From Actinomycetota bacterium (GTDB taxonomy: Bacteria; Actinomycetota; Acidimicrobiia; Acidimicrobiales; Ilumatobacteraceae), in contig JBEDFA010000023.1 of assembly GCA_041175365.1 (NCBI GenBank), positions 10,738 through 74,737 on the forward strand: 64,000 nt of DNA, given 5' to 3'. The translations under genes were made by a program, and so were the position numbers. Positions 1,992 through 50,804 of this stretch are shown here, piece after piece (the stretch's first letter is position 1; each line of letters opens with the position of its first letter). The notes below the pieces were generated by a model. It saw only the letters and a program-made list of their open reading frames with translations, made no database searches and had not been told where the DNA came from.

Positions 1992-1992
<1 letters not shown>

Positions 1993-2909: not shown

Positions 2910-2918
2910 CCTTAGACC

Positions 2919-18878: not shown

Positions 18879-19235
18879 TTGAGCCAATGGGTCTTCGTTA
18901 TGCCAATGCGAACGGAATGCAAGAACTATGAGAGCCGCACCTATGCAAATGGTGATGCGGTGCGTAAGTGCAATCTCGATCTTGCCCCCGAAGCGCCGTG
19001 GCGTTGTCCAGACCCATGCGAAGGGTACGCACGCCGTTTGGCAGATGTGGCCTGGGTGCACGGCAGTGCGATTGCACCGCCCACACCACCAGAAGTGCCT
19101 GGTTTAGATGATGGCTCCGCAGCTGCAGTACTTGATGCAGCAAGCGAAATCATCAACTCCATCAGTGCGCAAACTATTGAAGAAGTCGTAGCAGAACAGT
19201 CGAAGAAGCGTCGTTGGTGGCGCAAGAAGAAGTAG
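18879..19235 (+). CDS. Hypothetical Cys4 mini-protein with polybasic tail, embedded between sufB and sufD
   Basis: The ORF fills the whole sufB-sufD gap, running from the base after the sufB TGA to 7 nt before the sufD ATG. Its cysteine spacing is C-x15-C-x11-C-x3-C (TECKNY..RKCNL..WRCPDPCEGY). The middle is acidic and Pro-rich and the C-terminus is KKRRWWRKKK. The real start may be ATG 18900 or 18906. I recognise no family. Confidence 0.55.
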   Translation: MSQWVFVMPMRTECKNYESRTYANGDAVRKCNLDLAPEAPWRCPDPCEGYARRLADVAWVHGSAIAPPTPPEVPGLDDGSAAAVLDAASEIINSISAQTIEEVVAEQSKKRRWWRKKK

Positions 19236-19242
19236 CAGATTC

Positions 19243-20310
19243 ATGAATACAACCCCCACACTCCCCAGCACCGAAGAAGAGATCTGGCGTTACAGCCGTA
19301 TCGGTGAACTTGATCTGTCTGCGTTCGCCGCAGGCACCGCACGCACAGAGACAGTCGGTCTTGATGCAGTGCGTGTGAAGGAATCTCTCGCCGGCATCGC
19401 AATGAATGGCACGCCCGATGTGTTTGCAGAACTCAACGCGGCAAACGCAGAGACGATCTCGTTGCGCATCCCCAAGGGTGTTGCTGTTGATGGTGTCATC
19501 GAAATCATTCACCACATCGAAGCCGATGGCATTGTTGCCTATCCACGTTTGATCATTGATGCGGAGCCAGAGAGTCAAGTTACTGTCGTCGAGCGTTTCG
19601 TTTCGAATGACAATGTGAAGTCACTTGTTGTTCCTGTGCTCGAGATTCGTTCTGCTGCCAGTGCCAACGTGAACTACGTCGGTGTCAACCAATTGGGTCT
19701 TCGTACTTGGATGATTGCTCACCAACAGACGGTGGGTCATCGCGATTCGAACACTCGCCTCAACACGATTGCTCTCGGCGGCGATTACGCACGAGTGCGT
19801 GCAGAAGTGCGTTTGGTGGAGTCTGGTGCGAATGCACAGCAACTTGCGTTGTACTTCGCAAGCGGCACTCAGATGCACGACTTCCGCACCCTGCAGCGTC
19901 ACGAAGCACCACGTACCTACAGTGACCTGTTGTTCAAGGGTGCTGTTGGCGGCAGCGCACGCAGCGTGTACACCGGACTCATTCGAATTGAGAAGAACGC
20001 TGGCAAGTCCGAAGCGTTCCAGACCAACCGCAACCTCACCTTGGGTGCAGGTGCATGGGCAGAGAGCGTGCCCAACCTTGAGATTGAAACCAACGAAGTG
20101 AAGTGCAGCCATGCCAGCACCGTTGGTTCGATTGACCAGGAACAGCGGTTCTATTTGGAAAGCCGTGGCATCTCGCCAGAAGTAGCTGAACGTCTCGTGG
20201 TGTTCGGTTTCTTCAAGGATGTTCTTGATCGTTTGCCATCGAATGTGGACACCACTTCGTTGGAAGCAGAGATTGCAGAAAAGTTGCGTCGTGAAGAGGC
20301 AGCGCAGTGA
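19243..20310 (+). CDS. sufD: Fe-S cluster assembly protein SufD
   Basis: It has a SufB/D beta-helix region ending in KCSHASTVGSIDQEQRFYLESRGI. It sits downstream of sufB. Confidence 0.9.
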   Translation: MNTTPTLPSTEEEIWRYSRIGELDLSAFAAGTARTETVGLDAVRVKESLAGIAMNGTPDVFAELNAANAETISLRIPKGVAVDGVIEIIHHIEADGIVAYPRLIIDAEPESQVTVVERFVSNDNVKSLVVPVLEIRSAASANVNYVGVNQLGLRTWMIAHQQTVGHRDSNTRLNTIALGGDYARVRAEVRLVESGANAQQLALYFASGTQMHDFRTLQRHEAPRTYSDLLFKGAVGGSARSVYTGLIRIEKNAGKSEAFQTNRNLTLGAGAWAESVPNLEIETNEVKCSHASTVGSIDQEQRFYLESRGISPEVAERLVVFGFFKDVLDRLPSNVDTTSLEAEIAEKLRREEAAQ

Positions 20311-20627
20311 GCGTTGTTGCCAAGTTCGACGAACTGAAGTCTGGCGAAGCCCAGCGCGTGATGGTGGATGGCGTCGCTGTCGCTGTCGTTCGTATCGAGG
20401 ACGAAGTATTTGCTGTTGCCGACATGTGCAGCCACGCAAATGTGTCGTTGTCGGAAGGCACTGTCATGTGCGAGACCAAGCACATCGAGTGCTTCAAGCA
20501 CGGAAGTGCTTTCAGTTTGGAAACCGGCATTCCAGATGCATTGCCTGCCACAAAGCCTGTTGCAGTTTTCTCTGCATCAGTCGTTGACGGAAATGTCGTT
20601 GTTGAAACAAAGGATGGTGCGAAGTGA
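20307..20627 (+). CDS. Rieske [2Fe-2S] ferredoxin-like protein
   Basis: The Rieske ligand boxes are CSHANVSL (CxH) and CFKHGSAF (CxxH). It has 4-nt overlaps with both sufD and sufC. This position is known from other actinobacterial suf operons. Confidence 0.85.
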   Translation: MSVVAKFDELKSGEAQRVMVDGVAVAVVRIEDEVFAVADMCSHANVSLSEGTVMCETKHIECFKHGSAFSLETGIPDALPATKPVAVFSASVVDGNVVVETKDGAK

Positions 20628-21349
20628 GCACACTGAAAATCACAGGCTTGACTGCAGAAGTCGCCGATAAGCAAATTCTCAATGGCATCGACCTTGAAGT
20701 GAACTCAGGTGAAGTGCATGCCATCATGGGGCCCAACGGCGCCGGTAAGAGCACATTGTCCGCGGTCATCATGGGCAAGCCCGGATACACCGTCACTGGT
20801 GGCAGCGTCACACTCGATGGTGTTGACATGCTTGCGTTGCCAACATGGCAGCGTGCTGCGGCTGGATTGCATCTCGTGATGCAGTACCCCACAGAAGTTC
20901 CTGGCGTGCATGTTGATCAGGTGCTGGCAGAAGCTCTCACCGCACGTGGTCGTGATACGAAGGACATGGCTGCTCGCATCGCTGTTGAAGCGGGCCGCAT
21001 CAACTTTGACGCCAACCTTGTTTCGCGTGCGATGAATGTTGACCTCTCTGGTGGAGAGAAGAAGCGCAATGAAACATTGCAGTTGGGAATGCTGGAGCCG
21101 AAGTTCGCGATTCTCGACGAATTGGATTCTGGTCTCGATATTGACGCATTGCGTGACTGCGCACGCCGCGTTGAAGCTGCAACGCACGAGAACAACTTGG
21201 GTGTTCTTGCCATTACGCACTACGTACGCTTGTTGGAAGAACTCAAGCCCGACGTCGTACATATTCTCGCTGCAGGTCGCATCGTGAAGACAGGCGGCCC
21301 AGAGCTTGCCGACATTCTCGAGCGCGACGGCTACGCCGCCTTCGTTTGA
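20624..21349 (+). CDS. sufC: Fe-S cluster assembly ATPase SufC (copy 1, divergent)
   Basis: Walker A is GPNGAGKST, the ABC signature is LSGGEKKRNE, and Walker B is AILDELDSGLDIDA. It ends in the ITHY..LL motif. Confidence 0.9.
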   Translation: MSTLKITGLTAEVADKQILNGIDLEVNSGEVHAIMGPNGAGKSTLSAVIMGKPGYTVTGGSVTLDGVDMLALPTWQRAAAGLHLVMQYPTEVPGVHVDQVLAEALTARGRDTKDMAARIAVEAGRINFDANLVSRAMNVDLSGGEKKRNETLQLGMLEPKFAILDELDSGLDIDALRDCARRVEAATHENNLGVLAITHYVRLLEELKPDVVHILAAGRIVKTGGPELADILERDGYAAFV

Positions 21350-23554: not shown

Positions 23555-26302
23555 TTATTTCTGACGACGACGAACAATGACTTTGCGAATCTCTTCCGCC
23601 CACAGCACAGATGATGCTGTTGCAATGCAGATCAACCATTGCTGTGGGGTGATGTCCCTTGTGTCGAAAAGGTTTTGCATGAACCAAACGTGTGTGACTG
23701 CAACCTGAAGTGCAAGAACAGATGCAAGTGAGATCCACAGTGCCTTGTTGGTGAAGGTCAATTTGTTGAACACACTTCTAGAATCGCTGCGAACATTCAA
23801 AATGTTGAAGAACTGGAACAACACGAATGTATTGAGACCCATCGTTCCTGCAACGGAAGCTGTGGTTGCTGCAACATGATCGCCAGGGGCGAATTCGAAG
23901 AGAAGTGTTGTCGCAATGGCCATGACAAGCGCGCTGAGTCCGACTGTGAACCACCGTTGACGAGTGAGAATCGGTTCATTTTTCGGACGTGGTGTACGTG
24001 ACATGACGGATGTTCCGCCTTGGTCGACTCCCAATGCCATTGCTGGAGGGCCATCCATGATGATGTTGACCCAGAGAATTGCGATAGCAGTGAACGGCTT
24101 GCGCTCCATGATTCCGGTGATCGAACTTGCGAGGAACACCATGGCAAAACCAAGTGTGGTGCTGAGCTGGAAGCGAACAAACTTCACGATGTTGTCGTAA
24201 ATGACTCGACCACGTTCGACCGCACCAACGATGGTCGCGAAGTTGTCGTCCGTCAGCACCATGGTGGCTGCTTCTTTGGTGACTTCGGTGCCGGTGATGC
24301 CCATGGCAACACCAATGTCGGCTTTCTTGAGTGCAGGTGCGTCGTTGACGCCGTCACCGGTCATCGCTACAACATTGCCCTTGCGTTGCAGTGCAGTGAC
24401 AAGACGAATTTTGTGAGTAGGGGAAACTCGTGCAAAGACTGAAGTGTGATCGATGATGCGTTCGAGTTCTTCTTCCGACATCAACTCAAGTTCTGCGCCA
24501 GTGACGGAACCGCCAGTGAGGCCGAGGTCGCGGCCGATAGCTGCAGCGGTAATTGCATGGTCGCCCGTAATCATCTTCACGGAGATACCGGCTCGGTGTG
24601 CGATCGCGATGGCATCGCGTGCTTCGGGACGAGGTGGGTCGATGATTCCGATGAGTGCCAGGAATGTCAACTCATGCACCAAGGAGATGGGATCTTCGGC
24701 GGAGATTTCATTCCAGGCTTCAAGGTCAAAGTCGCGGTGGGCAACAGCGAGTACGCGCAAGCCTTGTGATGCGAGACGTTCGTTGTGGGCAACAAGGTCT
24801 GCGTGGAGGTCTCCGATGGGGGCTGCCGAACCGGTGGCATCGATAGCGCGAACGGAGCGTTGCATGAGAACGTCTGGTGCACCCTTGACGAACACGCGCA
24901 CGATGTCATGTCCTTCATCAGTGGTGATTTGATGGAACGTGGCCATGAACTTATGTGCGCTATCAAATGGCACTTCAGCCAAGCGCGGACGTTGAGTGCG
25001 CATGTCGGAAACGTCAATGCCACCCTTCATGGCAAGCACGACCATGGCGCCTTCTGTGGGGTCGCCCACAAGTTCCCACTCGTTGCCTTCATCGTTGCGA
25101 ACAATGGAGTCATTGCAAAGAGCCATTGGATACAAGGCTGTGAGAAGTGCAATGGGGTCATCGCCTTGCGCGGTTTCAATCTTCCCGTCGGGGGAGTAAC
25201 CCTCGCCGGAGATGTGGTGCGACTTGTTCATGAAGACAAGTTCACGTGCAGTCATTTGATTCAAAGTGAGCGTGCCGGTCTTGTCGGAACAGATGACGCT
25301 GGTGCATCCAAGTGTCTCAACGCTCGCGAGACGCTTCACGATGGCGTTCTTTTTTGCCATTCGCGAAGTGCCGATAGCAAGAGTCACGGCCGTGACCGCA
25401 GGAAGCCCTTCAGGAATTGCGGCGGCTGCGAGTGCAACGGCGGTGAGCATCAAGTCTTGAAATTCATCACCGGAGATGAGGCCGATGATGAAGACAACGC
25501 CAACAATGACGCCCGCAAGTTTTGCAAGCGAGTGGGCGAGTGTGTCGAGTTGCTTTTGTAGAGGGGTCTTGTCGGTTTCAGTGTCCTGGAGAAGACCTGC
25601 AATGTGACCCATCTCGGTGTTCATGCCAGTGGCGGTGACGACGAATTCAGCGCGGCCTCTGGTCACGGTGGTATTCATGAACACCCCACACTTGCGATCA
25701 CCGATGGAAGCATCTGCGGCGACTGGATCGAGCGATTTTGTTGACGCGAGGCTTTCACCTGTTAGCGATGCCTCTTCCACTTCAAGGTTGACGGCAGTGA
25801 GAAGTCGTCCGTCGCCAGGGACGCGGTCGCCAGCTTCGATGAGCACGATGTCGCCGGGCACTATTTGTTCTGTTGGCACATTCTCGAGTTCGCCATTACG
25901 TCGTACACGTGCTGATGACGCGAGCATTTTCTTCAAGGCATTCAGTGACGCCTCGGCCTTGTTCTCCTGAACAAAGCCAATGATTGCGTTGATGAGAACA
26001 ACCGTCATCACAACGATGGGTGTTTTGACTTCCTTGGCGACAACAAGGCTGACCACCGCGGCAACAATCAAGATGACTGTCAGCATGTTGGTGAACTGAC
26101 CCGCGAATCGCTTCCACGCAGGAACTGCTTCTTTTTCTGCCAAGCGGTTGGGACCGAACAACATCAAACGGGCTGAAACCTCGTCAGTGTTCAAGCCATT
26201 GGTGTCGGCTTTGATCTGTTGCAGGACTTCTTCAGCAGAAAGAGCGTGAGCTACCAGCGGAGACTCTGTGAGATTTGCATGTACTGCGGGGGCAGGGAAC
26301 AT
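23555..26302 (-). CDS. P2-type cation-transporting ATPase (Ca2+/Mn2+ class)
   Basis: Track ORF 23555..26464 is over-extended. The motifs are TGES, the phosphorylation site CSDKTGTLT, KGAPD, MITGDH and TGDGVNDAPALK, plus an N-terminal Cation_ATPase_N-like segment. I placed the start at ATG 26302 (MFPAPAV), which is preceded by GAAGGA. Confidence 0.93.
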   Translation of the reverse strand: MFPAPAVHANLTESPLVAHALSAEEVLQQIKADTNGLNTDEVSARLMLFGPNRLAEKEAVPAWKRFAGQFTNMLTVILIVAAVVSLVVAKEVKTPIVVMTVVLINAIIGFVQENKAEASLNALKKMLASSARVRRNGELENVPTEQIVPGDIVLIEAGDRVPGDGRLLTAVNLEVEEASLTGESLASTKSLDPVAADASIGDRKCGVFMNTTVTRGRAEFVVTATGMNTEMGHIAGLLQDTETDKTPLQKQLDTLAHSLAKLAGVIVGVVFIIGLISGDEFQDLMLTAVALAAAAIPEGLPAVTAVTLAIGTSRMAKKNAIVKRLASVETLGCTSVICSDKTGTLTLNQMTARELVFMNKSHHISGEGYSPDGKIETAQGDDPIALLTALYPMALCNDSIVRNDEGNEWELVGDPTEGAMVVLAMKGGIDVSDMRTQRPRLAEVPFDSAHKFMATFHQITTDEGHDIVRVFVKGAPDVLMQRSVRAIDATGSAAPIGDLHADLVAHNERLASQGLRVLAVAHRDFDLEAWNEISAEDPISLVHELTFLALIGIIDPPRPEARDAIAIAHRAGISVKMITGDHAITAAAIGRDLGLTGGSVTGAELELMSEEELERIIDHTSVFARVSPTHKIRLVTALQRKGNVVAMTGDGVNDAPALKKADIGVAMGITGTEVTKEAATMVLTDDNFATIVGAVERGRVIYDNIVKFVRFQLSTTLGFAMVFLASSITGIMERKPFTAIAILWVNIIMDGPPAMALGVDQGGTSVMSRTPRPKNEPILTRQRWFTVGLSALVMAIATTLLFEFAPGDHVAATTASVAGTMGLNTFVLFQFFNILNVRSDSRSVFNKLTFTNKALWISLASVLALQVAVTHVWFMQNLFDTRDITPQQWLICIATASSVLWAEEIRKVIVRRRQK

Positions 26303-26309
26303 TGGTTTT

Positions 26310-26426
26310 CCTTCGGCTAGCAACGGGGCTTGGCCGAAGGTCTCTCCCAACCCTTTCGGGTTTCCGTGCCGGGCTTTTTTAACCGTACTGACGACACTGG
26401 AATTGGTAGGGATACTCCCCTTCGTG
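26310..26426 (-). promoter_or_regulatory. yybP-ykoY-like (Mn2+) riboswitch with SD-sequestering expression platform
   Basis: The minus-strand leader reads CGAAGGGGAGUAUCCC...GUCGUCAGUA...AACCCGAAAGGGUU GGGAGAGACCUUCG GCCAAGCCCCGUUGCUA GCCGAAGGAAAACCAAUG. It carries the two hallmark blocks (GGGGAGUA after the P1 5' strand and AGACC before the P1 3' strand) and a GAAA-capped hairpin, as in the Lactococcus lactis yoaB leader I recall. CCUUCG can pair either with the upstream CGAAGG (P1) or with the downstream GCCGAAGG, which contains the SD. Confidence 0.55.
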
Positions 26427-26432
26427 ATTGAA

Positions 26433-26438
26433 ATTATA
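26433..26438 (-). promoter_or_regulatory. Candidate -10 box (TATAAT) for the riboswitch-ATPase transcript
   Basis: A perfect TATAAT on the minus strand ends 6 nt upstream of the first base of the proposed P1 helix. I found no convincing -35. Confidence 0.4.
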
Positions 26439-26462
26439 GGCCCATCTCCTAATCTCACAGGC

Positions 26463-26951
26463 ATGTCAGACGAGAAAATTCACCCCAATGTGGCAAAAGT
26501 GACAGATGCTGCGCGTGCGGCTGGTCTTGAGATCACGGTGAAGAAGTTCCCCGAAGGCACAAAGACGGCGCAGGACGCGGCCACGGCCATCGGGGTCACG
26601 GTGGGGCAGATCGTGAAGAGTCTCGTCTTTGGCGTGGATGACGAAATCGTGATGGCACTCGTCAGCGGATCGAACCATTTGGATGAGAAGAAACTTGCAG
26701 CGGCTGCCGGCGGTGCGAAATGCACGCGCGTTGATGCTGATGCTGTGCGTGAGGCGACAAGCTTCCCGATTGGTGGCGTTCCACCTTTTGGTCACACAAC
26801 TCAACTGCGTGTGTTTGTTGATCCGGACTTGTTGCAGTACGACGAAGTGTGGGCTGCAGCTGGAACGTGGAACGACAACTTCGGTGCGAACCCGAATGAC
26901 ATCGTGCGCGTTGCTGGCGGCGTAGTCACCGACCTGAAGCGGTCCGAATAA
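26463..26951 (+). CDS. YbaK/EbsC-type aminoacyl-tRNA editing (deacylase) domain protein
   Basis: Track ORF 26268..26951 is over-extended, and I moved the start to MSDEKIH at 26463. The motifs are KSLVF, SG...LD.KKL and FPIGGVPPFGH. Confidence 0.85.
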   Translation: MSDEKIHPNVAKVTDAARAAGLEITVKKFPEGTKTAQDAATAIGVTVGQIVKSLVFGVDDEIVMALVSGSNHLDEKKLAAAAGGAKCTRVDADAVREATSFPIGGVPPFGHTTQLRVFVDPDLLQYDEVWAAAGTWNDNFGANPNDIVRVAGGVVTDLKRSE

Positions 26952-31169: not shown

Positions 31170-31574
31170 ATGAAACAAAAACTGTCTCTTGTCACGCTGG
31201 GTGTCGCGGACCTTGAACGTTCTGTTCAGTTTTATGAATCTTTGGGATGGACGTCTCTTCATCGGGCCCCTGATGCAGATGTCGCTTTTTTTGAGATGGG
31301 TGGAGTCCATCTTTCTTTGTTTGGCCGCGAGGACCTAGCAGCAGATATCGGACGAGCGTTTGAAGCGCCAGTAAAAAACTCTGCTTTCACTCTGGCTCAT
31401 AATGAAACTTCAGAAGCAGAAGTTGATCGAGCATTTGCAGAGTTCATCGCAGCTGGTGCAACGGAAGTGAAGCACCCAGCCCCGACGGCGTGGGGCGGTT
31501 ACTCCGGTTACGTTGCTGACCCTGATGGCCACCTTTGGGAAGTGGCGTTCAATCCATTTAGTGACTGGACTTAG
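31170..31574 (+). CDS. VOC-family (glyoxalase/bleomycin-resistance) protein
   Basis: The pattern is LVTLGVADLERSVQFYE.LGW ... YVADPDGHLWEVA, which is typical of VOC proteins. Confidence 0.8.
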   Translation: MKQKLSLVTLGVADLERSVQFYESLGWTSLHRAPDADVAFFEMGGVHLSLFGREDLAADIGRAFEAPVKNSAFTLAHNETSEAEVDRAFAEFIAAGATEVKHPAPTAWGGYSGYVADPDGHLWEVAFNPFSDWT

Positions 31575-31891
31575 TCGTCCTCTGAATTTTCGATGGTGAC
31601 GGGGTAGCTGCCGCCAAGACGGAAGATGAGATCTGTCTCAACGTCACCGGCGCCGCCCGTGCGCTCGTACGTTTCAGTAGCTAGTGGTGCGTGATGGGCG
31701 CAATACATCTCCTGCGTGATGACATTTCCCGCATCATCAAGGCGCGTTGCAACGAACCGACTATCCGCGCGGCATGAAACGCATGGTGTGTATCCAACCT
31801 TCCAGATGTGCATCCAGTGTCGCTCCTCGACGAACAATCGTTGGCTGTCATCATCAGATCGGGCCTTGAACTCCGATGGGTTCGTACTCAT
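31571..31891 (-). CDS. Hypothetical protein (106 aa)
   Basis: It is the only long ORF in this slot. It overlaps the convergent VOC gene by 4 nt. It contains CVSC and a later CAHH. I recognise no family. Confidence 0.4.
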   Translation of the reverse strand: MSTNPSEFKARSDDDSQRLFVEERHWMHIWKVGYTPCVSCRADSRFVATRLDDAGNVITQEMYCAHHAPLATETYERTGGAGDVETDLIFRLGGSYPVTIENSEDD

Positions 31892-33225: not shown

Positions 33226-33903
33226 ATGCCAGATGACATCTCACAACCTTCTCCGCTGAGTGATCGCACCACCGTGCGACGTGGTGCAAAGCGGGCCGAA
33301 TATGGCGTCTCGCAGATGCGGGAGATTCTCAAGGCAGGAACCGTCGCGCATGTTGCGGTCAATACCGATGAGGGTCCACTTGTTCTTCCAATGGTTTACG
33401 GAATCAGTGAAGACACGTTGTACTTGCACGGGGCTTTGGCAAACTCGCTTTTGAAGGCAGGTGCGGATCATCAGATTTGTGCAACAATCACGATTCTTGA
33501 TGGACTTGTTTTCGCAAAGAGTCCATTTAGCCACTCAATGAATTATCGAAGTGTGGTGGTTCGTGGACAGGCTCGGGTCGTGTCCGAGGCGCAAGAGACT
33601 CTTCGCGCGTTGCAGCTGATGACGGACCATGTTGTTCCGACCTGGGATGTGACACGGCCATTGAATGATTCAGAGATTCGCGCAACCCGCGTCATTGCAC
33701 TTCCGTTAACGGAGATGTCTGCCAAGATTCGGAGAGGGGGCGCAATTAATGATCCAGAAGATGCGGATGCTCCGTACTGGGCGGGCCATATTCCTCTGAC
33801 GACAGTCTTTGGTGAACCGGTGCCGAATGAGGATGCGATTGGTCCGATTCCTCCGTCAATTTCGACACTGCCCGGTCACGATATTCATGCTCCTCGGCGT
33901 TAA
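33226..33903 (+). CDS. Pyridoxamine 5'-phosphate oxidase-family flavoprotein
   Basis: The pattern is G.VAHVAVNTDEGPLVLPMVYG...DTLYLHGA, typical of the Pyridox_ox_2/NimA-like group. Its stop shares the tetranucleotide TTAA with the convergent heliorhodopsin stop. Confidence 0.72.
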   Translation: MPDDISQPSPLSDRTTVRRGAKRAEYGVSQMREILKAGTVAHVAVNTDEGPLVLPMVYGISEDTLYLHGALANSLLKAGADHQICATITILDGLVFAKSPFSHSMNYRSVVVRGQARVVSEAQETLRALQLMTDHVVPTWDVTRPLNDSEIRATRVIALPLTEMSAKIRRGGAINDPEDADAPYWAGHIPLTTVFGEPVPNEDAIGPIPPSISTLPGHDIHAPRR

Positions 33904-34655
33904 ACGAGTGCGCCGGTGAAGACCTGCCACGCAAGCAGTGACTTCGCTACAAAACTCAGGATGATGTACCAACGCTCTCCATAGAGATAGTCAGCCCATT
34001 TTCCTTCCGCCTTGTACTGCTTCCATTGCACGAGAGCAAAGCAGTTGAAGAAGATGAACAGCGAAATCACAATGCCGATGACGAAGCCAGGAACAGTGGT
34101 TTCTGGTGGACCACTGGGGGACAGCATGTTGATGAAAATGGCGACCCAGGGGACTGCGCCAGCGATGCAACCGAACCAGAACGGACGCATATCGCCACTA
34201 CCTGGCTCAACGTAACGCTCTTGCAACCAGCCGAAGAGAATCATGCTGACATTCACGCCGAAGATTGCGATGAGCGCGATGTAGTCAGTGACGCCATTCA
34301 GTTGAAGAATGATGACAATCATGATGGACGATGAGAGCGAATATTCAATCCATCGGTAGATGTTGATGTGTCGCTTCAATCCGTCGACGTACTTGGGAAA
34401 GATGGGGCCAGAGCTGACGAAGAAATGGAAGAACGCCGAGAGCGCCATAAAGGCCGCAACGGTGTAGCTGATGTTCAGACTGAAGAGCTCAATAGGAGCA
34501 GCAAAGCTTCCGGTGCCAGGCGCATCCGACATGTAGGTCGCGATAACTGGCAACGATGCATCTGTGGAGAGGAAAAGAATCGCAAGAAGGGAAAACAGGT
34601 GAAGAAACCCTGCAGTCATATTCAGTTTTCGCAAGTTCTTGAATTGGATGTCCAT
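33900..34655 (-). CDS. Heliorhodopsin
   Basis: 251 aa with 7 TM segments. By eye it aligns end to end with the prototype 48C12 as I recall it. Shared blocks are FLHLF (H19), FFHFFVSSG (H77), YRWIEYSLSSSIMIV (E104), IFGVNVSMILFGWLQE, PFWFGCIAGAVPW, VPGFVIGIVISLFIFFNCFALVQ and GERWYIILSFVAKSLLAWQ (Lys238 at the Schiff-base position). An SD (AAGGA) lies 8 nt upstream. Confidence 0.93.
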   Translation of the reverse strand: MDIQFKNLRKLNMTAGFLHLFSLLAILFLSTDASLPVIATYMSDAPGTGSFAAPIELFSLNISYTVAAFMALSAFFHFFVSSGPIFPKYVDGLKRHINIYRWIEYSLSSSIMIVIILQLNGVTDYIALIAIFGVNVSMILFGWLQERYVEPGSGDMRPFWFGCIAGAVPWVAIFINMLSPSGPPETTVPGFVIGIVISLFIFFNCFALVQWKQYKAEGKWADYLYGERWYIILSFVAKSLLAWQVFTGALV

Positions 34656-34714
34656 TTCTACATCCTTTCATGAATTGCAGAGTGAATGCTTTGTTCGCTT
34701 GGCGCAGAGAGAGA

Positions 34715-35269
34715 TTAGGACAATTCGCTCAATCGATCTTTGACAATCGCACGCATGAAAGGTCCATCAACTTTCCAGTCAAACGGCACCTTAAAAGTCT
34801 TTTTATTGGATTCGTACTTCTCGAGTTTCTTAGCAAAAGTCTTCACGAAGTCCTTATTGAAAGGACCAATAGTGAGATGGTTTTTTGAAACCGAGATTCC
34901 CAGAATGTATTGGTCGTCAATCTTGAGCATCGGCTGATTCCACGCCATCACTAACTCAAGGTCCGAATATGTGGTGGTGATGCTTGCAAAGATTTCTTTG
35001 ATTTTCTTCGCTACAGCAGGGTCGAGCGTCTTGAAGAAATCGGCGGGATTAGTGAATTTCTTTGATGTGGTGGAGCCACGCACGTACATCACCAATGCAT
35101 TGGCGTGAGCTTGACTGAAGCCATGCTCTTCGCGCAGGTAGGCAATCTGTTCGGGGTACTTTGCATCACCAAGATCTCGAAGACGGTCTATCCAGATACT
35201 GATTGGTCCACCGTGCTTCTTCTCGATGAGTGGGAAGAATTTGGTCCGGTCTCCGTCGTTTGCAGGCAT
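34715..35269 (-). CDS. DUF4287 domain fused to a YdhG/DUF1801-like domain
   Basis: The N-terminus (FFPLIEKKHGGPISIW...EEHGFSQAHANALVMY) is paralogous to 32677..32889. The C-terminal ~110 aa resemble the YdhG-like fold family, but that call is tentative. Confidence 0.6.
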   Translation of the reverse strand: MPANDGDRTKFFPLIEKKHGGPISIWIDRLRDLGDAKYPEQIAYLREEHGFSQAHANALVMYVRGSTTSKKFTNPADFFKTLDPAVAKKIKEIFASITTTYSDLELVMAWNQPMLKIDDQYILGISVSKNHLTIGPFNKDFVKTFAKKLEKYESNKKTFKVPFDWKVDGPFMRAIVKDRLSELS

Positions 35270-35278: not shown

Positions 35279-35752
35279 TTAGGCAGGTTTGGTGAGGTCG
35301 GCGATGATGATCTTGCGCATCTGCATCATTGCTTGCATTGCATAGCTGGAGACTTGAGGATCGCTTGATGAAAGTGCTTGCGGTAACGCCCTGGGAATGA
35401 TTTGCCAGCTGACGCCGAACTTGTCTTTACACCAGCCGCACTGGCTTTCCGCTCCACCGTTTACAGTCAACGAATTCCAAAGATGGTCCACTTCTTCTTG
35501 TGTGTCACATGCAACCTGGAACGAGATTGCCTCGGTATGAGGGAATTGTGGTCCACCGTTGAGGCATACAAATGGCTGACCAAATATCTCAAACTCCGCC
35601 GTCAGCACCGTGCCTGCGGGCAGTTGGCTACCTTCGGGGTAGTACGAGATATTTCCCAGTTTTGATTGAGGGAAAAGAGAGACGTAGAAATTCGCAGCCT
35701 GTTCTGCTTCGCGGTCAAACCAGAGAAATGTTGTAATGCCTGAGACTGTCAT
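35279..35752 (-). CDS. PhnB/YjdN-like VOC-superfamily protein (3-demethylubiquinone-9 3-methyltransferase-domain family)
   Basis: It has ITTFLWFD..AEQAANFYVSLF ... CGWCKDKFGVSWQI, the characteristic signature of this family. Confidence 0.75.
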   Translation of the reverse strand: MTVSGITTFLWFDREAEQAANFYVSLFPQSKLGNISYYPEGSQLPAGTVLTAEFEIFGQPFVCLNGGPQFPHTEAISFQVACDTQEEVDHLWNSLTVNGGAESQCGWCKDKFGVSWQIIPRALPQALSSSDPQVSSYAMQAMMQMRKIIIADLTKPA

Positions 35753-35791: not shown

Positions 35792-36451
35792 TTACGAGGC
35801 TTGAAGAAGCCCCGCAACAATGTCTGCCGCAACAGTTCGCACCGGGCGCTGTTCGCGACGCGCGATACAGCGCATCTCGTGAAAGGCCGATGGGAAATCC
35901 ATCTTGTTTCGTTCAGCAAGAATTCCTTTGGCCTGCTCAATGATGACGCGACTATCGAGAGCGCCCTGTAGCTGGGTGACAAGTGAATGTGCCTGATGAA
36001 TGCGATGGGTCTGATCAATTGTCGTTGCAGCAATATCAGCGATGCTCTGTAGCACGGCGATGGAATGTTCACCCAGTGCACTCATGCCAGTACTGGAGAG
36101 ATGGATAACGCCGAGAACTGCGCCTCGAACTCGCAGCGGAAATGAGTATTCACAAATGAGATCTCCACCATTTCCAATGACGGAGAATTCCGGTTGCAAG
36201 GTGTTAATTGCCCGTTGCGAGAGATATGGGAGCACCTCATCAATGGTGTTTGACTGTCGGTTGCTGCGGACGGTGATGGCCCGCTCGTTGCCTATGGGCA
36301 GCATCGCAATCTCGCCGGTTTCCAGCCCTGTTGCTTCCAAGCAATACGTCAACAACATGTGAAGTCCATCCGAATCAACAGATTCACAAAATATGTCTGT
36401 CATATCTGCAAACATCTCGGCGATTTCTCGTGTGTCGTTATTCAAATTCAT
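35792..36451 (-). CDS. GAF-ANTAR RNA-binding regulator
   Basis: The C-terminal ANTAR motif is LQGALDSRVIIEQAKGILAERNKMDFPSAFHEMRCIARREQRPVRTVAADIV. The N-terminal ~150 aa are GAF-like. There is no receiver domain. A GGGAGG SD lies upstream. Confidence 0.8.
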   Translation of the reverse strand: MNLNNDTREIAEMFADMTDIFCESVDSDGLHMLLTYCLEATGLETGEIAMLPIGNERAITVRSNRQSNTIDEVLPYLSQRAINTLQPEFSVIGNGGDLICEYSFPLRVRGAVLGVIHLSSTGMSALGEHSIAVLQSIADIAATTIDQTHRIHQAHSLVTQLQGALDSRVIIEQAKGILAERNKMDFPSAFHEMRCIARREQRPVRTVAADIVAGLLQAS

Positions 36452-36562: not shown

Positions 36563-37672
36563 TCACTTGCGATAGTTATCTGCCTGTGAGATATAGCGCG
36601 CGTAGTTGTCGGCGCGAGCCTCGAAACGGCTAAGAGTCATGCCGTAGGTGAATTTAAATGACTCGAGGAAATCACCAGATTCGCGCATATGGGAGTAGAG
36701 AGAAATGATTTTTGTGAGACCTCCGTAATTTGCAATCAGAAGTTCCAGCGCAGCAGCTCCGCGTAGATATTCACATCCCCCGGGGAGTTCACTGTTGCCA
36801 CGAAAGGTAGTGAGTCTCGCGCTACAAGTACTTTGCCAATTAGAAAATTTGCGCAACCGAATGACATGGAAATGCATATAGGTCATTCGTCCCTTGGAGG
36901 CCTTGACGCGAGAGAGACCACTAACAATCTCAGCTAGACCTTCTCTGAACCAAGCTGGCTCATTGTCCGGAATAAAACCATCTGTCAGTCGATTTCGTGC
37001 GACGTGCGTCCACTCGTGAGCAAGGCCAGAAAGATTTCTATCAACGAGAATATAGGACGTTGCAGAAATGGGCGGCTCTGGTTTTTGCTCCATGGCACTA
37101 GTAATTGTTTGGGAAATTGATCGGACAAAGAGATAGCCCGTGAGATTGATCACTATGACACTGCGATTGCAGATTGTGGCGCCCATGATGTATGCGCCTT
37201 CATACAGTGCAAGATTTGGCTGACAGCCAAGTGCATTAACTTGGGTTCGAAGAAACTCTTGAGTTCTACCAATAATCACGACAATGGATTTTGTTGCGTC
37301 ATTAATTGGAACGGAGAGAAATGCTCGAGCAGCGTGGAAAGCTTCAATTCCCAAAGCGATGGTGGGGGAATTTGCAGCAGAAGGTTCGATCCGCCAGCGA
37401 ATGAGGTTGATGGGAGGTGGCGAGGCTGAGTCCCAATTGATTGCCAAATCTTGCAGGCGGCGAACAATATCCACTTCAGATTTTGCAAGTCTCGTGCGAA
37501 TGGGGGCTACATAAAATCCGTAAGGCGGCCGAATGGTGACAAGCTTTGTGGGTTCTAGAACCAAGGGTCGCTGTGCCTCGACAGTTCTCGGTTGTGTGTG
37601 CGCAGTTGTCGATGATGAAAAGACTGTTGTTGCGATAATTGCAGTAACTGCGACATGCCAGAACTTCTTCAT
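36563..37672 (-). CDS. Secreted protein with HExxH zinc-protease motif
   Basis: It has a signal peptide (MKKFWHVAVTAIIATTVFSSSTTAHT) and a single HEWTH motif followed by AWFREGLAE (a possible third ligand). The gene is A/T-richer than the core genes. I recognise no specific family. Confidence 0.55.
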   Translation of the reverse strand: MKKFWHVAVTAIIATTVFSSSTTAHTQPRTVEAQRPLVLEPTKLVTIRPPYGFYVAPIRTRLAKSEVDIVRRLQDLAINWDSASPPPINLIRWRIEPSAANSPTIALGIEAFHAARAFLSVPINDATKSIVVIIGRTQEFLRTQVNALGCQPNLALYEGAYIMGATICNRSVIVINLTGYLFVRSISQTITSAMEQKPEPPISATSYILVDRNLSGLAHEWTHVARNRLTDGFIPDNEPAWFREGLAEIVSGLSRVKASKGRMTYMHFHVIRLRKFSNWQSTCSARLTTFRGNSELPGGCEYLRGAAALELLIANYGGLTKIISLYSHMRESGDFLESFKFTYGMTLSRFEARADNYARYISQADNYRK

Positions 37673-39776: not shown

Positions 39777-40972
39777 GAACACTGTTTTCCTCTGATGCGC
39801 CAATGCGGTTGATGCCTTGGTCTGCTTTGCATCCTTCATTAGGTGACCTGCCAAGTGTGGCGGTGATGAGCACATATCCGCCGACTCATTGCGGTCTTGC
39901 AACTTTTGCATCTGCTCTTTCGAAGGGCATGTTGGATGTTGGAGCGAGGGAAGTGGGGGTCATTGATGTCTCTGGCACGGTGGCCCCCACAACCTCCGGT
40001 CCTGTTGTTGCTTCGCTACAAGCACAGTCACCGAAGTCCCGCATTGAAGTGGCTCGAGTGATTAATGGATACGACTTCCTTTTATTGCAACATGAATTTG
40101 GAATCTTTGGCGGAGATGATGGCTGTGAGATCCTCGATGTCCTTGAAGATGTTCACGTTCCGGTTGTTGTCACTCTGCACACTGTTCCTTTGCGGCCGAC
40201 AAATGGTCAACGCAGGGTTTTGGAAGCACTGGCTGAACGCGCAGATGTATTGGTAGCGATGACCCATGTTGCACGTGATCGATTTGTAGATCTCTATGAC
40301 ATTGACAGTACAAAGGTCGCAGTGATTCCTCACGGCGCAACTCTTCCGGCGTCGTCGGGTGTGCCAGATACAGAAAACTTCACCTTCCTTACTTGGGGTC
40401 TCCTTGGGCCTGGCAAGGGAATCGAATGGATGATTGATGCAATGGCGATGGTGCCAGAACTAAAGGGTCGTATTCGTTACGTGGTCGCGGGCCAAACCCA
40501 CCCCAAGATTCTTGCGAATGATGGGGACGGCTATCGCGACATGTTGAAACGTCGTTCTCGTCTTTTGGGTGTGGAGAACATGATTGAGTTTGATGACAGT
40601 TATCGAACCCTTGATTCGTTAATTGGATTAATTACCTCTTCAACGTGTGTCGTTCTTCCATATGACTCGATTGACCAAATCACATCAGGGGTTCTGGTCG
40701 ATGCCTTGGCAGCTCGTCGTCCGGTGATTGCAACAGCATTTCCACATGCTGTGGAACTTTTGGAGGAGAAAGCGGGGCTTGTGGTCCCTCACCGTGATCC
40801 TGTCTCTCTTGCTTCGGCAATCAGAGAAGTGGTGCACTGCAAAGACAAAATTCCTCAGATGTATGACGCCACGGCGGACATTGCGAGAGAACATCGCTGG
40901 TCCGCTGTCGCCGCCAAATATTTGGAGTTCGGAAGACAATTGGTCTTGGCTGGGAACACGGTCACAACATGA
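39773..40972 (+). CDS. GT4-family (group 1) glycosyltransferase
   Basis: It has a GT-B pattern with the C-terminal sugar-nucleotide binding region (VVLPYDSIDQITSGVLVDALAARRPVIAT). The start has an ATGA overlap with the surface-protein stop, and GGAGG lies 8 nt upstream. Confidence 0.8.
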   Translation: MRTLFSSDAPMRLMPWSALHPSLGDLPSVAVMSTYPPTHCGLATFASALSKGMLDVGAREVGVIDVSGTVAPTTSGPVVASLQAQSPKSRIEVARVINGYDFLLLQHEFGIFGGDDGCEILDVLEDVHVPVVVTLHTVPLRPTNGQRRVLEALAERADVLVAMTHVARDRFVDLYDIDSTKVAVIPHGATLPASSGVPDTENFTFLTWGLLGPGKGIEWMIDAMAMVPELKGRIRYVVAGQTHPKILANDGDGYRDMLKRRSRLLGVENMIEFDDSYRTLDSLIGLITSSTCVVLPYDSIDQITSGVLVDALAARRPVIATAFPHAVELLEEKAGLVVPHRDPVSLASAIREVVHCKDKIPQMYDATADIAREHRWSAVAAKYLEFGRQLVLAGNTVTT

Positions 40973-41994
40973 CACTTCTTGAACCTCGCCAAAGCGTGGG
41001 CCTTCGTCATCTTTCACGGCTGACAGATGACCGGGGAATATTGGAACACGCCGTATATGAGCATCCACGATTTGAATATGGATACTGCACAGACGACAAC
41101 GCTCGATTACTCGTCGTTGCTGCTCGTGATAACGCTGAAAGCCCTGACTCCGTGTTGCTAGCGCGTATTGCGGCTCGATTCCTCATTGATGCTTTACGAA
41201 GTGATGGACAGATTCATAATCGAATGAGTTTTGATCGCATTTGGATTGACACGCCGAGTAGTGATGACTGTTGGGGCAGAGCCTTATGGGGATTTGGCAG
41301 CGCCGTGACCCATTCTTCGGATGGCGAGCTTCGAACGAGTTGCTACGAAGCATTCGGTGTGGGTGCACAGGCACGTTCCAATTCGTTGCGGTCCATGTGT
41401 TTTGCGCTTCTGGGTGCCGCTGAAATCGTCAAGATGGATCCATCACATGAGGGCGCACAGGCTCTGTTGTCTGATGGTGTGGCGATGTTTGCATTCCATC
41501 CCAATGGGCAGGGCGAATGGCTTTGGCCAGAACGTCGTCTCACATATGCGAATGCCTTGATCCCCGAGGCGATGTTGGCCGTTGGAGAAGCACTGGGATA
41601 CGTGCCTTTGATTCATCGTGGAACCAGGTTGCTTCACTGGCTTGTTAAACAGGAAACAGCTGGTGATCATTTTTCGGTGACGCCAGTCGGTGGGCGAGGA
41701 CCGGGAGATATAAAACCCGGATTTGATCAGCAGCCCATTGAAGTTGCTGCATTGGCAGATGCCGCTGCACGGGCTGCAGAGGTCACTGGTGATGACTATT
41801 GGGAAGAAGTAATTGACCTTGCAGTGAATTGGTTTCTAGGCAACAACGACGTCGGTCTCGCAATGATTAATTATGAGACTGGTGGCGGATATGACGGCCT
41901 GCGTCCGACCAGAGTCAACCTCAATCAAGGGGCAGAGTCCACGCTGGCAATGATCTCGACGATGCAGTATCGCTCTTCCATGTGGCTCGTGTGA
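40969..41994 (+). CDS. Conserved hypothetical protein, translationally coupled between GT4 and GH130-like genes
   Basis: It has an ATGA overlap upstream and a GTGA overlap downstream. It is a soluble 341-aa protein (LSRLTDDRGILEHA....PRFEYGYCTDDNARLL). I cannot assign a family. Confidence 0.5.
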   Translation: MTLLEPRQSVGLRHLSRLTDDRGILEHAVYEHPRFEYGYCTDDNARLLVVAARDNAESPDSVLLARIAARFLIDALRSDGQIHNRMSFDRIWIDTPSSDDCWGRALWGFGSAVTHSSDGELRTSCYEAFGVGAQARSNSLRSMCFALLGAAEIVKMDPSHEGAQALLSDGVAMFAFHPNGQGEWLWPERRLTYANALIPEAMLAVGEALGYVPLIHRGTRLLHWLVKQETAGDHFSVTPVGGRGPGDIKPGFDQQPIEVAALADAAARAAEVTGDDYWEEVIDLAVNWFLGNNDVGLAMINYETGGGYDGLRPTRVNLNQGAESTLAMISTMQYRSSMWLV

Positions 41995-43535: not shown

Positions 43536-43952
43536 TTACTTACCGCCGAAGAGTCCACCAACAAGCTGGAGTGCATAGTCAGCTTCGGCAGATGCATTAA
43601 CCGCGAAAATGAACAATGCGCCACCGGCCATTGAGATGTTCTTCAAGAAGCCAATCATTTCCACTTGCTTGGAAGCTTCATCGGCATTCCAGAAGTCGTG
43701 CATCTTGACTGCCATTGCAACAAGCAAGACGGAAAGTACGAGTGCACCGAGGTCGGTCCACACGCCAAGAATGACGGAGAGTCCACCGAGGATGCAGAGC
43801 AAGCCCGAGAGCTGCACGGAGAGCTTTGGCATCGGCACCTTCTTGAACTGTGCATAGCCCGTCATAGCTTCTGTGTGCTTGAAGTGGTTGAGGCCGGAGC
43901 CGAGGAACATGAATGCGAACAGGATTCGACCTGCAAGAAGGACGTAGTCCAT
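43536..43952 (-). CDS. DoxX-family membrane protein
   Basis: Track ORF 43536..44003, with the start moved to MDYVLLAGRILFAFMFLGSGLNHF. It has 4 TM helices, typical of DoxX. Confidence 0.8.
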   Translation of the reverse strand: MDYVLLAGRILFAFMFLGSGLNHFKHTEAMTGYAQFKKVPMPKLSVQLSGLLCILGGLSVILGVWTDLGALVLSVLLVAMAVKMHDFWNADEASKQVEMIGFLKNISMAGGALFIFAVNASAEADYALQLVGGLFGGK

Positions 43953-43977
43953 TGGTTTCTCTCTTTCATTGGGGGAG

Positions 43978-44026
43978 ATAGTTGAGGACGCAATCATAAA
44001 CACAAAGTGGTTGCGATAGCAACTAT
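43978..44026. promoter_or_regulatory. Candidate MarR operator pair in the DoxX/MarR divergent region
   Basis: ATAGTTGaggaCGCAA (43978-43993) and its inverted copy TTGCGatagCAACTAT (44011-44026) match at 12 of 16 positions when reverse-complemented. The second copy is itself the palindrome GTTGC-gata-GCAAC. Confidence 0.45.
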
Positions 44027-44053
44027 TCCCGTTTCAGGGGTTAGATTGTCCTT

Positions 44054-44506
44054 ATGGCAACCAAGTGGCTCTCTCCTCAGGAAATGGAAGCCTGGCTTGC
44101 CTTCATTGAGACCACCGGCGATCTGATGAAGGCCATCGAGCGAGATTTGGCGCAGTACGGCCTGGATCGTGGCGATTATCAGTTGTTGGCGATTCTTTCG
44201 GAGTCTGAAGACCAGCAGATGCGCATGTGTGATCTTGCCGACCGACTTCGCCTCACCCGCAGTGGGCTGACACGCCGAATGGAAGGCGTGCTGAAGAAGA
44301 AGCTTGTTTCACGTATTCAGTCCACCGAAGATGGTCGCGTTGCATTTGCGCAATTAACCACGAAGGGTTTTGATCTTCTGAAAACTGCAGCGCCTCATCA
44401 TCTCGAAAGTGTTCGAAGCCTGATGATTGACTTGTTGTCGCCCGCCGAAATCAAAGCATTTGCAACGGGTTTCAACAAGATCTCGGCAAATCTCTCAGCC
44501 GAGTAA
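44054..44506 (+). CDS. MarR-family transcriptional regulator
   Basis: The winged-HTH pattern is YQLLAILSE....MRMCDLADRLRLTRSGLTRRMEGVLKKKLVSR..S.EDGRV. Confidence 0.9.
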   Translation: MATKWLSPQEMEAWLAFIETTGDLMKAIERDLAQYGLDRGDYQLLAILSESEDQQMRMCDLADRLRLTRSGLTRRMEGVLKKKLVSRIQSTEDGRVAFAQLTTKGFDLLKTAAPHHLESVRSLMIDLLSPAEIKAFATGFNKISANLSAE

Positions 44507-48334: not shown

Positions 48335-48775
48335 TTATTCAGCGGCGATGTCGAGTGCTTCGGCCAATGTGTTCCATGACAACACTGCGCACTTGATGCG
48401 CACAGGGAACTTCACGACGCCTGTGAGCGCTTCAAGATCGCCGAGTGGAGCAGATGTATCTGGCTCGCCATCTTCTTCGATGGACATCATGTGCTTGAAA
48501 CGGCTGATGAGTGCGCGAATTTCTGCAATGGGCTTGCCCTTGACTGCAGCGCTCATCATTGATGCAGAGCTTTGGCTGATGGAGCATCCCTGGCCGCTGA
48601 TCTTGATATCGGAAACCTTGTCGTCTTCGACGGCGATGAACACTTCAATCTCGTCACCACACAATGGGTTATGACCTTCGGCGCGCACTGCAGGTGGTTC
48701 AAGGGAGCCACGGTTGCGTGGGCTCTTGTAATGATCAAGAATGATTTCGCGGTAGAGGTCTTCGAGGCCGGGCAT
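48335..48775 (-). CDS. sufU: Fe-S cluster assembly sulfur-transfer protein SufU
   Basis: The motifs are LYREIILDHYKSPRN, NPLCGDEI, GQGCSISQSSASMM and VKFPVRIKCA, which are diagnostic of SufU/IscU-like proteins. Confidence 0.9.
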   Translation of the reverse strand: MPGLEDLYREIILDHYKSPRNRGSLEPPAVRAEGHNPLCGDEIEVFIAVEDDKVSDIKISGQGCSISQSSASMMSAAVKGKPIAEIRALISRFKHMMSIEEDGEPDTSAPLGDLEALTGVVKFPVRIKCAVLSWNTLAEALDIAAE

Positions 48776-48804
48776 GGTGTGTCTCCGTGTCTAGAACTAT
48801 GAGG

Positions 48805-50037: not shown

Positions 50038-50042
50038 AACGA

Positions 50043-50804
50043 TTACGCCTTGTAGGCCTCGTAGCCGTTCTTTTCAAGTTCAGCAGCAACTTCCATGCCA
50101 CCGGACTTCACGATGCGTCCGTCAATCATGATGTGTACGTGATCGGGCTGCAGTTCGTCAAGAAGGCGCTGGTAGTGCGTGATGAGAAGAATGCCCAAGT
50201 TCGGACGGTCTGCGCGAACCTCGCGAATACCTTTTGCAACGATGCGCAATGCGTCGATGTCGAGACCTGAGTCTGTTTCGTCGAGAACTGCGAACTCTGG
50301 TTCGAGCAATGCCATCTGCATGATCTCGTTGCGCTTCTTTTCGCCACCGGAGAAACCTTCGTTGAGGTAACGGTCGACGAAAGAAGAGTCCATGCCCAGA
50401 CGCTTCATCCAGTCCATGGCGGACAAACGAAGTTCAAGGACGGAGAGGTCTATTCCCTTGCGTGCCGACAAGGCCTGGCGAAGGAACTGGATGACGGAGA
50501 CTCCGGCAATTTCCTGTGGGTATTGGAAGGCGAGGAACATGCCAGCCTTGGCACGCACATCTGTGGTCCAGTCGGTGATGTTTTCGTCGTTGAGGAAAAT
50601 GTCGCCCGAGGTGACTTCGTATTCGGGAGAGGCGAGCAGTGTGCTGGCCAAGGTGGACTTGCCACAGCCATTGGGGCCCATGATGGCGTGCACTTCGCCA
50701 GCGCCCACTTTGAGAGAGAGCCCGCGAAGAATCTCGGCAGGGGTCTCGCCATCGTCAGTGACGGGGCGGGCGTGGAGGTTCTCAATACGGAAAAGTTCGC
50801 TCAC
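50043..50804 (-). CDS. sufC: Fe-S cluster assembly ATPase SufC (copy 2, canonical-looking)
   Basis: The motifs are GPNGCGKST, FLAFQYPQEIAGV, LNEGFSGGEKKRNEI, VLDETDSGLDIDAL and ITHYQRLL. It has a GTG start and lies 5 nt upstream of sufS. Confidence 0.92.
   Translation of the reverse strand: MSELFRIENLHARPVTDDGETPAEILRGLSLKVGAGEVHAIMGPNGCGKSTLASTLLASPEYEVTSGDIFLNDENITDWTTDVRAKAGMFLAFQYPQEIAGVSVIQFLRQALSARKGIDLSVLELRLSAMDWMKRLGMDSSFVDRYLNEGFSGGEKKRNEIMQMALLEPEFAVLDETDSGLDIDALRIVAKGIREVRADRPNLGILLITHYQRLLDELQPDHVHIMIDGRIVKSGGMEVAAELEKNGYEAYKA

Follow-up and report, generated by a model that had tools for sequence, protein, structure and literature searches.

A native heliorhodopsin gene of a freshwater acIV actinobacterium and its DUF4287/Fra-like neighbour

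Heliorhodopsins (HeRs) have been proposed as light-dependent regulators, AbHeR acting on glutamine synthetase (PMC9529153), and further pairings join TfHeR with a photolyase (PMC9769723) and OcHeR with the multidrug ATP-binding cassette (ABC) exporter OmrDE (PMC11109279). From gene neighbourhoods, Bulzu et al. (PMC8612252) reported that glutaredoxin, GSHPx, glyoxalase and catalase genes adjoin those of heliorhodopsins, and proposed a sensory role in oxidative stress. Here we describe a HeR gene in a 64,000-nucleotide stretch of actinobacterial DNA (the window; positions 10,738 to 74,737 of contig JBEDFA010000023.1, assembly GCA_041175365.1) and compare it with these systems and with 48C12, the HeR from a freshwater actinobacterial fosmid (PDB 6SU3, 6SU4, 6UH3). 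Taken as a single claim, it seems highly likely that the gene encodes a native, functional heliorhodopsin of the acIV lineage, serving as a non-pumping, light-dependent regulatory helper with an output linked to redox or iron metabolism. An earlier reading of the window (the original prediction) had characterised the family as non-pumping, first found in freshwater Actinobacteria and possessing only scattered partner activities, in agreement with PMC9529153, PMC9769723 and PMC11109279, which add the ABC transporter.

The identity of the gene was assessed with family models and against known structures. The Pfam heliorhodopsin model (PF18761, cut-off 26.7 bits) matches residues 8-250 of the product over its entire length (positions 1-242 of 242) with 305.3 bits, and the NCBIfam equivalog NF038020, ‘heliorhodopsin HeR’ (cut-off 100 bits), scores 314.4 bits. 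In a PDB sequence search the protein retrieves three 48C12 sequences (6UH3, 9LJJ and 6SU3/6SU4) at E = 1e-91, TaHeR (6IS6/7CLJ) at E = 1e-52 and the eukaryotic Cv06 (9VFC) at E = 4e-35. The open reading frame (ORF) named in the original prediction, a 251-residue, seven-transmembrane heliorhodopsin, was thus recovered at its exact coordinates, on the minus strand and with an end-to-end match. That prediction had also aligned the product by eye with 48C12; the full-length correspondence stands, but it is not one of near-identity, since the two sequences, aligned pairwise, agree at 137 of 247 positions (55.5%) and are offset by just one indel of a single residue. A reading as a type-1 rhodopsin was ruled out, there being no match to PF01036.

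The functional residues are retained throughout. Lys238, in the motif SFVAKSLLAWQ of the seventh transmembrane helix, aligns with the Schiff-base lysine K241 of 48C12 and is invariant in alignment A1, while E104 lies at the counterion position of the third helix (E107 in 48C12) and the histidine pair H19 and H77 is kept (H23 and H80). These are the positions that had been singled out beforehand, and every motif then quoted is present in the translation. Of the residues mapped in the catalytic site, the pocket and the fenestration, all 23 agree with 48C12. They include S234, R101, W102, Y105, N135, E146, Q210, Y223, E227 and W243, as well as the fenestration positions F159, C163, G166, F203, N204 and A207, which correspond to F162, C166, G169, F206, N207 and A210 of 48C12. 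The two proteins also share their length class and a predicted inverted topology; they differ at around 45% of residues, mostly in transmembrane helix A, the A-B loop and other loops, and in the host, here an acIV member of the Acidimicrobiia. Judged from its sequence, the window gene is a genuine and intact heliorhodopsin.

Seven hydrophobic segments are found in the protein, and the loops on the side of the N-terminus carry 12 lysine and arginine residues compared with none on the other side. By the positive-inside rule the N-terminus is therefore predicted to be cytoplasmic, so that the expected inverted topology, with the N-terminus inside, is borne out. Comparison with four orthologues gives ratios of nonsynonymous to synonymous substitution (dN/dS) of 0.03-0.05, with synonymous sites near saturation, a result which shows strong purifying selection on a working gene.

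Base composition called for more care. At 50.7% guanine plus cytosine (GC), the gene is below the window average of 53.7%, and its 60-nucleotide lines range from 43 to 65%; the 55% from which the original prediction had argued for a core-like composition was the value of one such line and is not representative of the whole. The argument nevertheless holds when made on third codon positions (GC3), where HeR has 64.7%, compared with 59.5 +/- 3.8% for core and housekeeping genes and 51.0 +/- 5.7% for accessory neighbours: HeR is compositionally native. Its low overall GC follows from hydrophobic codons (GC at second positions is 38.9%). What does not survive is the separation of the gene from a nearby A/T-rich island, since the lowest-GC 300 nucleotides of the entire window (40.7%) overlap the 5' end of HeR. 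The lower-GC variable stretch in which the gene lies (27-44.5 kb; 50.8% GC against 54.7% elsewhere in the window) might, together with the low GC of the gene itself, suggest a gene without current function, either island cargo gained recently or a relic in decay. This is scarcely credible in view of the intact frame, the retention of all functional residues, the dN/dS values and the core-like GC3, as well as a locus position conserved across acIV and the clustering of acIV HeRs in the tree. Residues, GC3 and dN/dS effectively refute a pseudogene or island-cargo reading.

Relatives of the protein are very numerous, more than 7300 being found at E <= 1e-10 in a word-indexed search. One (P0001) is 100% identical, a protein labelled ‘hypothetical protein’ from an NCBI metagenome-assembled genome (MAG) of an Actinomycetota bacterium, and another (P0097), ‘heliorhodopsin HeR [Ilumatobacteraceae bacterium]’, is 92% identical; from these acIV and Ilumatobacteraceae MAG proteins the window HeR shows no difference in kind. 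In a collection of species-representative genomes, 565 stretches encode HeR relatives. The best 80 of these range from 93% down to 61% identity, with acIV, Ilumatobacteraceae and Acidimicrobiia MAGs in the upper ranks and mostly Saccharibacteria in the lower, and in the HeR tree the acIV sequences group together. The identical and nearest sequences, all from Actinomycetota or Ilumatobacteraceae MAGs, point to a monoderm host, which by these sequence relationships is a freshwater acIV actinobacterium (Acidimicrobiia, Ilumatobacteraceae-like). The gene is a routine orthologue of the very abundant, well-sampled and already known freshwater acIV heliorhodopsin.

The HeRs of Saccharibacteria, members of the Candidate Phyla Radiation, are 61-66% identical to the window HeR. 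Loci of this type are L062, L066, L068, L069, L072, L073, L075-L080 and L082 (and L067, L070, L071 and L074). Their HeRs share a single clade with those of a small number of MAGs whose labels read Acidimicrobiia, Burkholderiales or ‘bacterium’. Such a mixture may stem from gene transfer between actinobacteria and the epibionts that live on them, or from mis-binning.

By analogy and from its residues, the protein would work as follows. K238 would carry all-trans-retinal as a protonated Schiff base, E104 alone would act as counterion with H19 and H77 close by, and the retained lateral fenestration would open onto the retinal pocket. Like 48C12, TaHeR, AbHeR, TfHeR and OcHeR, it probably pumps no ions; instead, light would produce a long-lived intermediate whose altered cytoplasmic surface could bind and modulate one or more soluble or membrane partners. 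The retinal must be taken up from the surroundings or made by genes that lie in another part of the genome. A further 60 ORFs, which with HeR account for nearly every plausible gene of the window, were scanned with Pfam; the scans found no crtE/B/I/Y or blh within the 64 kb and no type-1 rhodopsin, photolyase, BLUF, LOV or phytochrome protein, so that HeR is, as first supposed, the only photoreceptor candidate there. The lack of retinal genes is unsurprising, since heliorhodopsin genes seldom have blh in their vicinity (preprint 10.1101/2021.02.16.431466).

Two other modes of action have to be considered. Proton transport is reported for a viral heliorhodopsin subfamily, at least as that work is cited in PMC11109279 and PMC12873467, and a light-driven or light-gated ion transporter resembling viral V2HeR3 might be imagined here too. 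A 2025 preprint, however, finds the transporting viral subfamily to lack the fenestration motif, which the window HeR possesses. Its overall closeness to 48C12, with all pocket residues in common, makes a transport function very improbable. 48C12, a reference heliorhodopsin, is reported not to pump ions (Pushkarev 2018; Kovalev 2020).

The same preprint proposes a light-harvesting role for heliorhodopsins with a carotenoid antenna, a proposal that competes with a regulatory one. Applied here, HeR would be mainly a two-chromophore light harvester whose outward fenestration recruits an exogenous xanthophyll. All six proposed carotenoid-site positions are indeed retained, in a monoderm actinobacterial host, but the motif occurs in 91% of heliorhodopsins and hence is not specific to this one. 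Carotenoid binding was moreover argued there from docking only, and the energy-transducing output of such an antenna is unexplained for proteins that do not pump. We regard this role as rather unlikely for the window HeR and return to a regulatory function, for which the genomic context may indicate an output.

In the described pairs of AbHeR, TfHeR and OcHeR, members of the same family as the window HeR, light-dependent binding and modulation of a nearby-encoded partner are presumed, as they are here. The difference is that no such partner gene adjoins the window HeR; on the same strand directly upstream lies instead the gene for a 184-residue protein (Table 1), with an N-terminal four-helix DUF4287 domain followed by a frataxin-like YdhG/Fra domain (DUF1801). 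The latter scores 25.0 bits in Pfam, slightly below its cut-off of 27.2, but the C-terminal half matches 2KL4, 2OC6 and 9T2W in the PDB, the latter two with E = 1e-7 to 1e-9. The confident AlphaFold model has a predicted local distance difference test (pLDDT) score of 91.4, and Foldseek relates it to Bacillus subtilis YdhG (2OC6; TM-score 0.78, root mean square deviation (rmsd) 1.6 A) and to the Listeria YdhG-like ‘frataxin’ (9T2W; TM-score 0.80). With these it shares the fold of its C-terminal ~110 residues at an rmsd of 1.6-1.7 A and 21-24% identity. It differs from them in the additional DUF4287 domain, for which Foldseek of the model retrieved no similar structure from the PDB. The fold of YdhG/Fra is frataxin-like, and the protein is reported to interact with IscU-type scaffolds and to stimulate iron–sulphur (Fe-S) cluster formation (PMC10855754). 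The model makes the C-terminal domain of the neighbour YdhG/Fra-like in fold, and the neighbour would be a Fra-like iron chaperone.

The literature gave no work combining heliorhodopsin with DUF4287, the domain itself appearing in one irrelevant paper only. Neither DUF4287 nor DUF1801 is among the ten frequent HeR neighbour groups of PMC11109279, and none of those ten adjoins the window HeR. The survey in PMC8612252 required spacers of less than 10 bp, so that neighbours at 27-73 nucleotides, such as those described below, would have gone uncounted.

The neighbourhood of HeR was compared across 82 loci with flanks of up to 10 kb (69 non-Saccharibacteria and 13 Saccharibacteria), to which clustering added the window segment for a total of 83 sequences. 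Since exact-sequence look-ups of the window HeR and of P0001 retrieved no contig, the locus of the 93% orthologue P0014 (L001, on a 2.07-Mb contig) served as nearest comparison. Its upstream side has GH130, GT4, SpaA, the 369-residue protein, ANTAR, a variable slot, DUF4287/DUF1801 and HeR in common with the window, whereas its downstream side is different, with MarR-like, Sbt_1 and P-II genes. The syntenic frame of the window is found in L001 and also in L003-L005.

In all-against-all clustering of the ORFs, DUF4287/DUF1801 emerged as the most frequent single neighbour cluster. Searches with tblastn located a full-length DUF4287/Fra-like copy near HeR in 22 of the 69 non-Saccharibacteria loci, on the HeR strand in 21 of them; the figure is 12 of 36 where both flanks reach at least 2 kb and 9 of 23 where they reach at least 3.5 kb. 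Loci with this neighbour are scattered over several acIV sub-clades of the HeR tree. In these it follows HeR at a distance of 27-3038 nucleotides; the window's clade alone has it upstream, at 59-73 nucleotides, and there the two genes are co-oriented and adjacent despite the swapped order. A glutaredoxin/mycoredoxin-like CGPC protein is encoded near HeR in 12 loci, mostly 1-40 nucleotides downstream. Further recurrent neighbours are DinB-like and nitroreductase genes, DUF2889, a MarR-DoxX pair and a 398-residue protein which we take, from reading its sequence by eye rather than from a family scan, to resemble a GH1 beta-glucosidase.

Placing the frame genes on all loci gave a common acIV order: sufS-sufU-(YkuD, HD-like)-MBL-EamA-MarR-DoxX-[variable]-HeR/DUF4287-[variable]-P-type ATPase. 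The window keeps this order along the minus strand, between 50 and 23.5 kb, and has taken up more accessory genes than most of the loci. Its DoxX/MarR pair, for example, is 9 kb from HeR rather than the 0.8-4.4 kb of other species because a surface-glycan cluster (SpaA/DUF7507, GT4, GH130) has been inserted.

Downstream of the suf operon, HeR is thus surrounded by small genes linked to thiol/redox chemistry, detoxification and Fe-S clusters, which makes a redox- or iron-linked output the most likely one. Within the window this context comprises the Fra-like protein, a nitroreductase, DinB, a glyoxalase and a PhnB-like protein, and sister species add a glutaredoxin-like CxxC protein. The output would be a daytime adjustment, either of the response to photo-oxidative stress or of the homeostasis of redox state and iron; drawn as it is from context, this is the weakest step of the scheme. 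The co-oriented, adjacent DUF4287/Fra-like protein would be the best local candidate for a partner, though a weak one. A more specific version, in which HeR is the light input of a photo-oxidative-stress and iron/Fe-S module, the illuminated protein binding the DUF4287 and Fra protein to tune, in daylight, iron delivery or Fe-S repair by the SUF system encoded nearby, with the glutaredoxin/mycoredoxin-like protein as co-player in sister species, we regard as a long shot. If true, the Fra-like protein would belong to a partner class not yet described for heliorhodopsins.

A reverse test, which set out from long contigs encoding four DUF4287 orthologues of 61-65% identity, showed how loose the association can be. 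In L084 HeR is followed after a gap of 28 nucleotides by DUF4287, and in L089-92 the order is HeR, glutaredoxin, an opposite-strand transporter and then DUF4287. In L085-88, by contrast, the same block (sufS-sufU-IU_nuc_hydro-DUF2889-X-DUF4287) has a GT2 glycosyltransferase where HeR would be, and in L083 a DUF4287/Fra-like gene has no HeR within 4 kb. In this one acIV lineage the GT2 gene (about 2921..3943 in L085-L088) takes the very place of HeR in L084, with DUF2889 on one side and the DUF4287/Fra-like gene on the other; next, on the opposite strand, comes another DUF4287 gene, stand-alone and of 70 residues.

The last two arrangements weigh against our interpretation of the context, and they do not stand alone. 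By tblastn, no DUF4287/Fra-like gene is near HeR in any of the 13 Saccharibacteria loci, and around two thirds of acIV HeR loci with adequate flanks are without one. The species compared all belong to one family, so that shared gene order may be simple inheritance, and spacers of 27-73 nucleotides, together with the poorly conserved one of the window, fall short of proving co-transcription with HeR. The partners of the described pairs are also missing: the Pfam scans found no glutamine synthetase or NAD+ synthetase in the HeR neighbourhood or the whole 64 kb and no photolyase or DUF2238 in the window, and no heterodimeric half-transporter ABC exporter of the OmrDE kind is next to HeR, the sole ABC ATPases of the window being SufC-like soluble subunits 13-15 kb away.

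It is accordingly probable that HeR and the Fra-like protein are neighbours only through inherited order, the latter serving SufS/SufU and the former having its partner elsewhere (glutamine synthetase or photolyase, for instance) or none. The recurrence of the suf-to-ATPase frame across acIV with differing insertions, the spread of HeR-DUF4287 distances, the loci in which the Fra-like gene has GT2 or nothing in place of HeR, the many HeR loci without it and the action of B. subtilis YdhG/Fra on Fe-S assembly all fit this explanation. Set against it are the prominence of the Fra-like gene in an unbiased clustering and the window's clade, in which the order is swapped and yet the two genes stay adjacent and co-oriented, 13 kb from suf. 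Gene order inherited within a single family, then, accounts for most of the linkage, and either gene occurs alone; the swap with retained adjacency is the one observation pointing beyond inheritance. As the cause of the adjacency, synteny is more probable than partnership.

Features of the window are collected in Table 1. The stop codons of HeR and of the convergent Pyridox_ox_2/Nim-like gene overlap in the sequence TTAA (33900-33903), leaving no intergenic room for a terminator on either strand. In L004, only 214 nucleotides are available 3' of HeR, similar in sequence to the window, and the arrangement may be shared there. On the other side, consensus scans of the 59-nucleotide spacer found neither a terminator nor a sigma-70 consensus. 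Around HeR they gave one sigma-70-like site against 4.4 expected, although such scans do not cover actinobacterial promoters, and terminator-like matches inside coding regions only. The spacer is poorly conserved relative to those of the 93%-identical orthologues in L001, L003 and L005; with no hairpin or motif shared among them, a conserved leader or an ANTAR target in this spacer, the only stretch examined for one, was dropped as a candidate.

Table 1. Position of HeR, its neighbours and other features of the window
Feature	Position	Strand	Size	Remarks
HeR coding sequence	33900..34655	-	251 aa	ATG start; seven transmembrane segments
Pyridox_ox_2/flavin mononucleotide-binding (Nim-like) gene	33226..33903	+	225 aa	convergent with HeR
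Spacer, DUF4287/Fra-like gene to HeR	34656..34714	-	59 nt	AGGA Shine-Dalgarno-like motif ~10 nt before ATG
DUF4287 + YdhG/Fra (DUF1801) protein	34715..35269	-	184 aa	directly upstream of HeR
PhnB-like protein (Pfam 3-dmu-9_3-mt)	35279..35752	-	157 aa	9 nt before DUF4287 gene
GAF-ANTAR regulator	35792..36451	-	219 aa	RNA-binding antiterminator output domain
Unassigned conserved protein	36563..37672	-	369 aa	faint HExxH/flagellinolysin-like match, E = 9e-4
Unassigned conserved protein	40969..41994	+	341 aa	
Lowest-GC segment of the window	34601..34900		300 nt	overlaps HeR 5' end
S-adenosylmethionine (SAM)-I/IV riboswitch RF01725	31918..32025	-		50.4 bits; gathering score 41.1
ORF directly downstream of the riboswitch	31571..31891	-	106 aa	unmatched in Pfam and NCBIfam
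Divergent DoxX and MarR pair	43536..44506	DoxX -, MarR +		acIV frame marker, HeR-upstream side
sufU (NifU_N) and sufS (cysteine desulfurase)	48335..50037	-		far anchor of syntenic frame
P-type cation ATPase	23555..26464	-		other anchor of syntenic frame
SUF block: sufB, sufD, Rieske protein, sufC	17478..21349	+		
SufC-like ABC ATPase of that block	20624..21349			
SUF block: sufU, sufS, second SufC-like ABC ATPase	48335..50804	-		
Second SufC-like ABC ATPase	50043..50804			

The slot between the ANTAR and DUF4287 genes is filled by the PhnB-like gene in the window and L004 and by a DNA_alkylation-repair gene in L001 and L002 (8654..9349 in L001), which suggests a cassette-like turnover of small stress genes. 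The GAF-ANTAR gene, which joins a small-molecule-sensing domain to the antiterminator domain, is the third gene upstream of HeR, shares its strand and is kept in that place only in the window's clade and L033. The 369- and 341-residue proteins bracket the surface-glycan cluster and are kept in L001, L003 and L004. The 106-residue ORF, with homologues in L001, L003 and L005, looks like a SAM-regulated small protein. NCBIfam offered no name for the DUF4287, PhnB-like, ANTAR, 369-residue, 341-residue or 106-residue neighbours.

Among the housekeeping genes of the window are mfd, pth, L25, prs, ksgA, tatD, metG, ychF, sufB/D/C with a Rieske protein, sufS/sufU and aceE. The accessory region at 27-44.5 kb holds, in its first part, PhzF-like, nitroreductase, TrmO, two GNATs, DinB, glyoxalase, ABM, Pyridox_ox_2 and HeR and, in the remainder, DUF4287/DUF1801, PhnB-like, GAF-ANTAR, the 369-residue protein, the SpaA/DUF7507-GT4-GH130 cluster, DoxX and MarR. 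The SUF genes are in two blocks ~27 kb apart, with the variable region of HeR between them.

The gene in itself adds nothing new, the family having been discovered in freshwater Actinobacteria, where acIV orthologues are abundant and named by the standard models. Its value is that of a clean, native and strongly constrained HeR which has no published partner nearby but, instead, recurrent neighbours related to redox and iron. For a family whose role is still open, the Fra-like protein among them is one concrete partner candidate, and these neighbours (a Fra-like and a glutaredoxin-like protein, DinB and nitroreductase) fit the idea of oxidative-stress sensing advanced by Bulzu et al.

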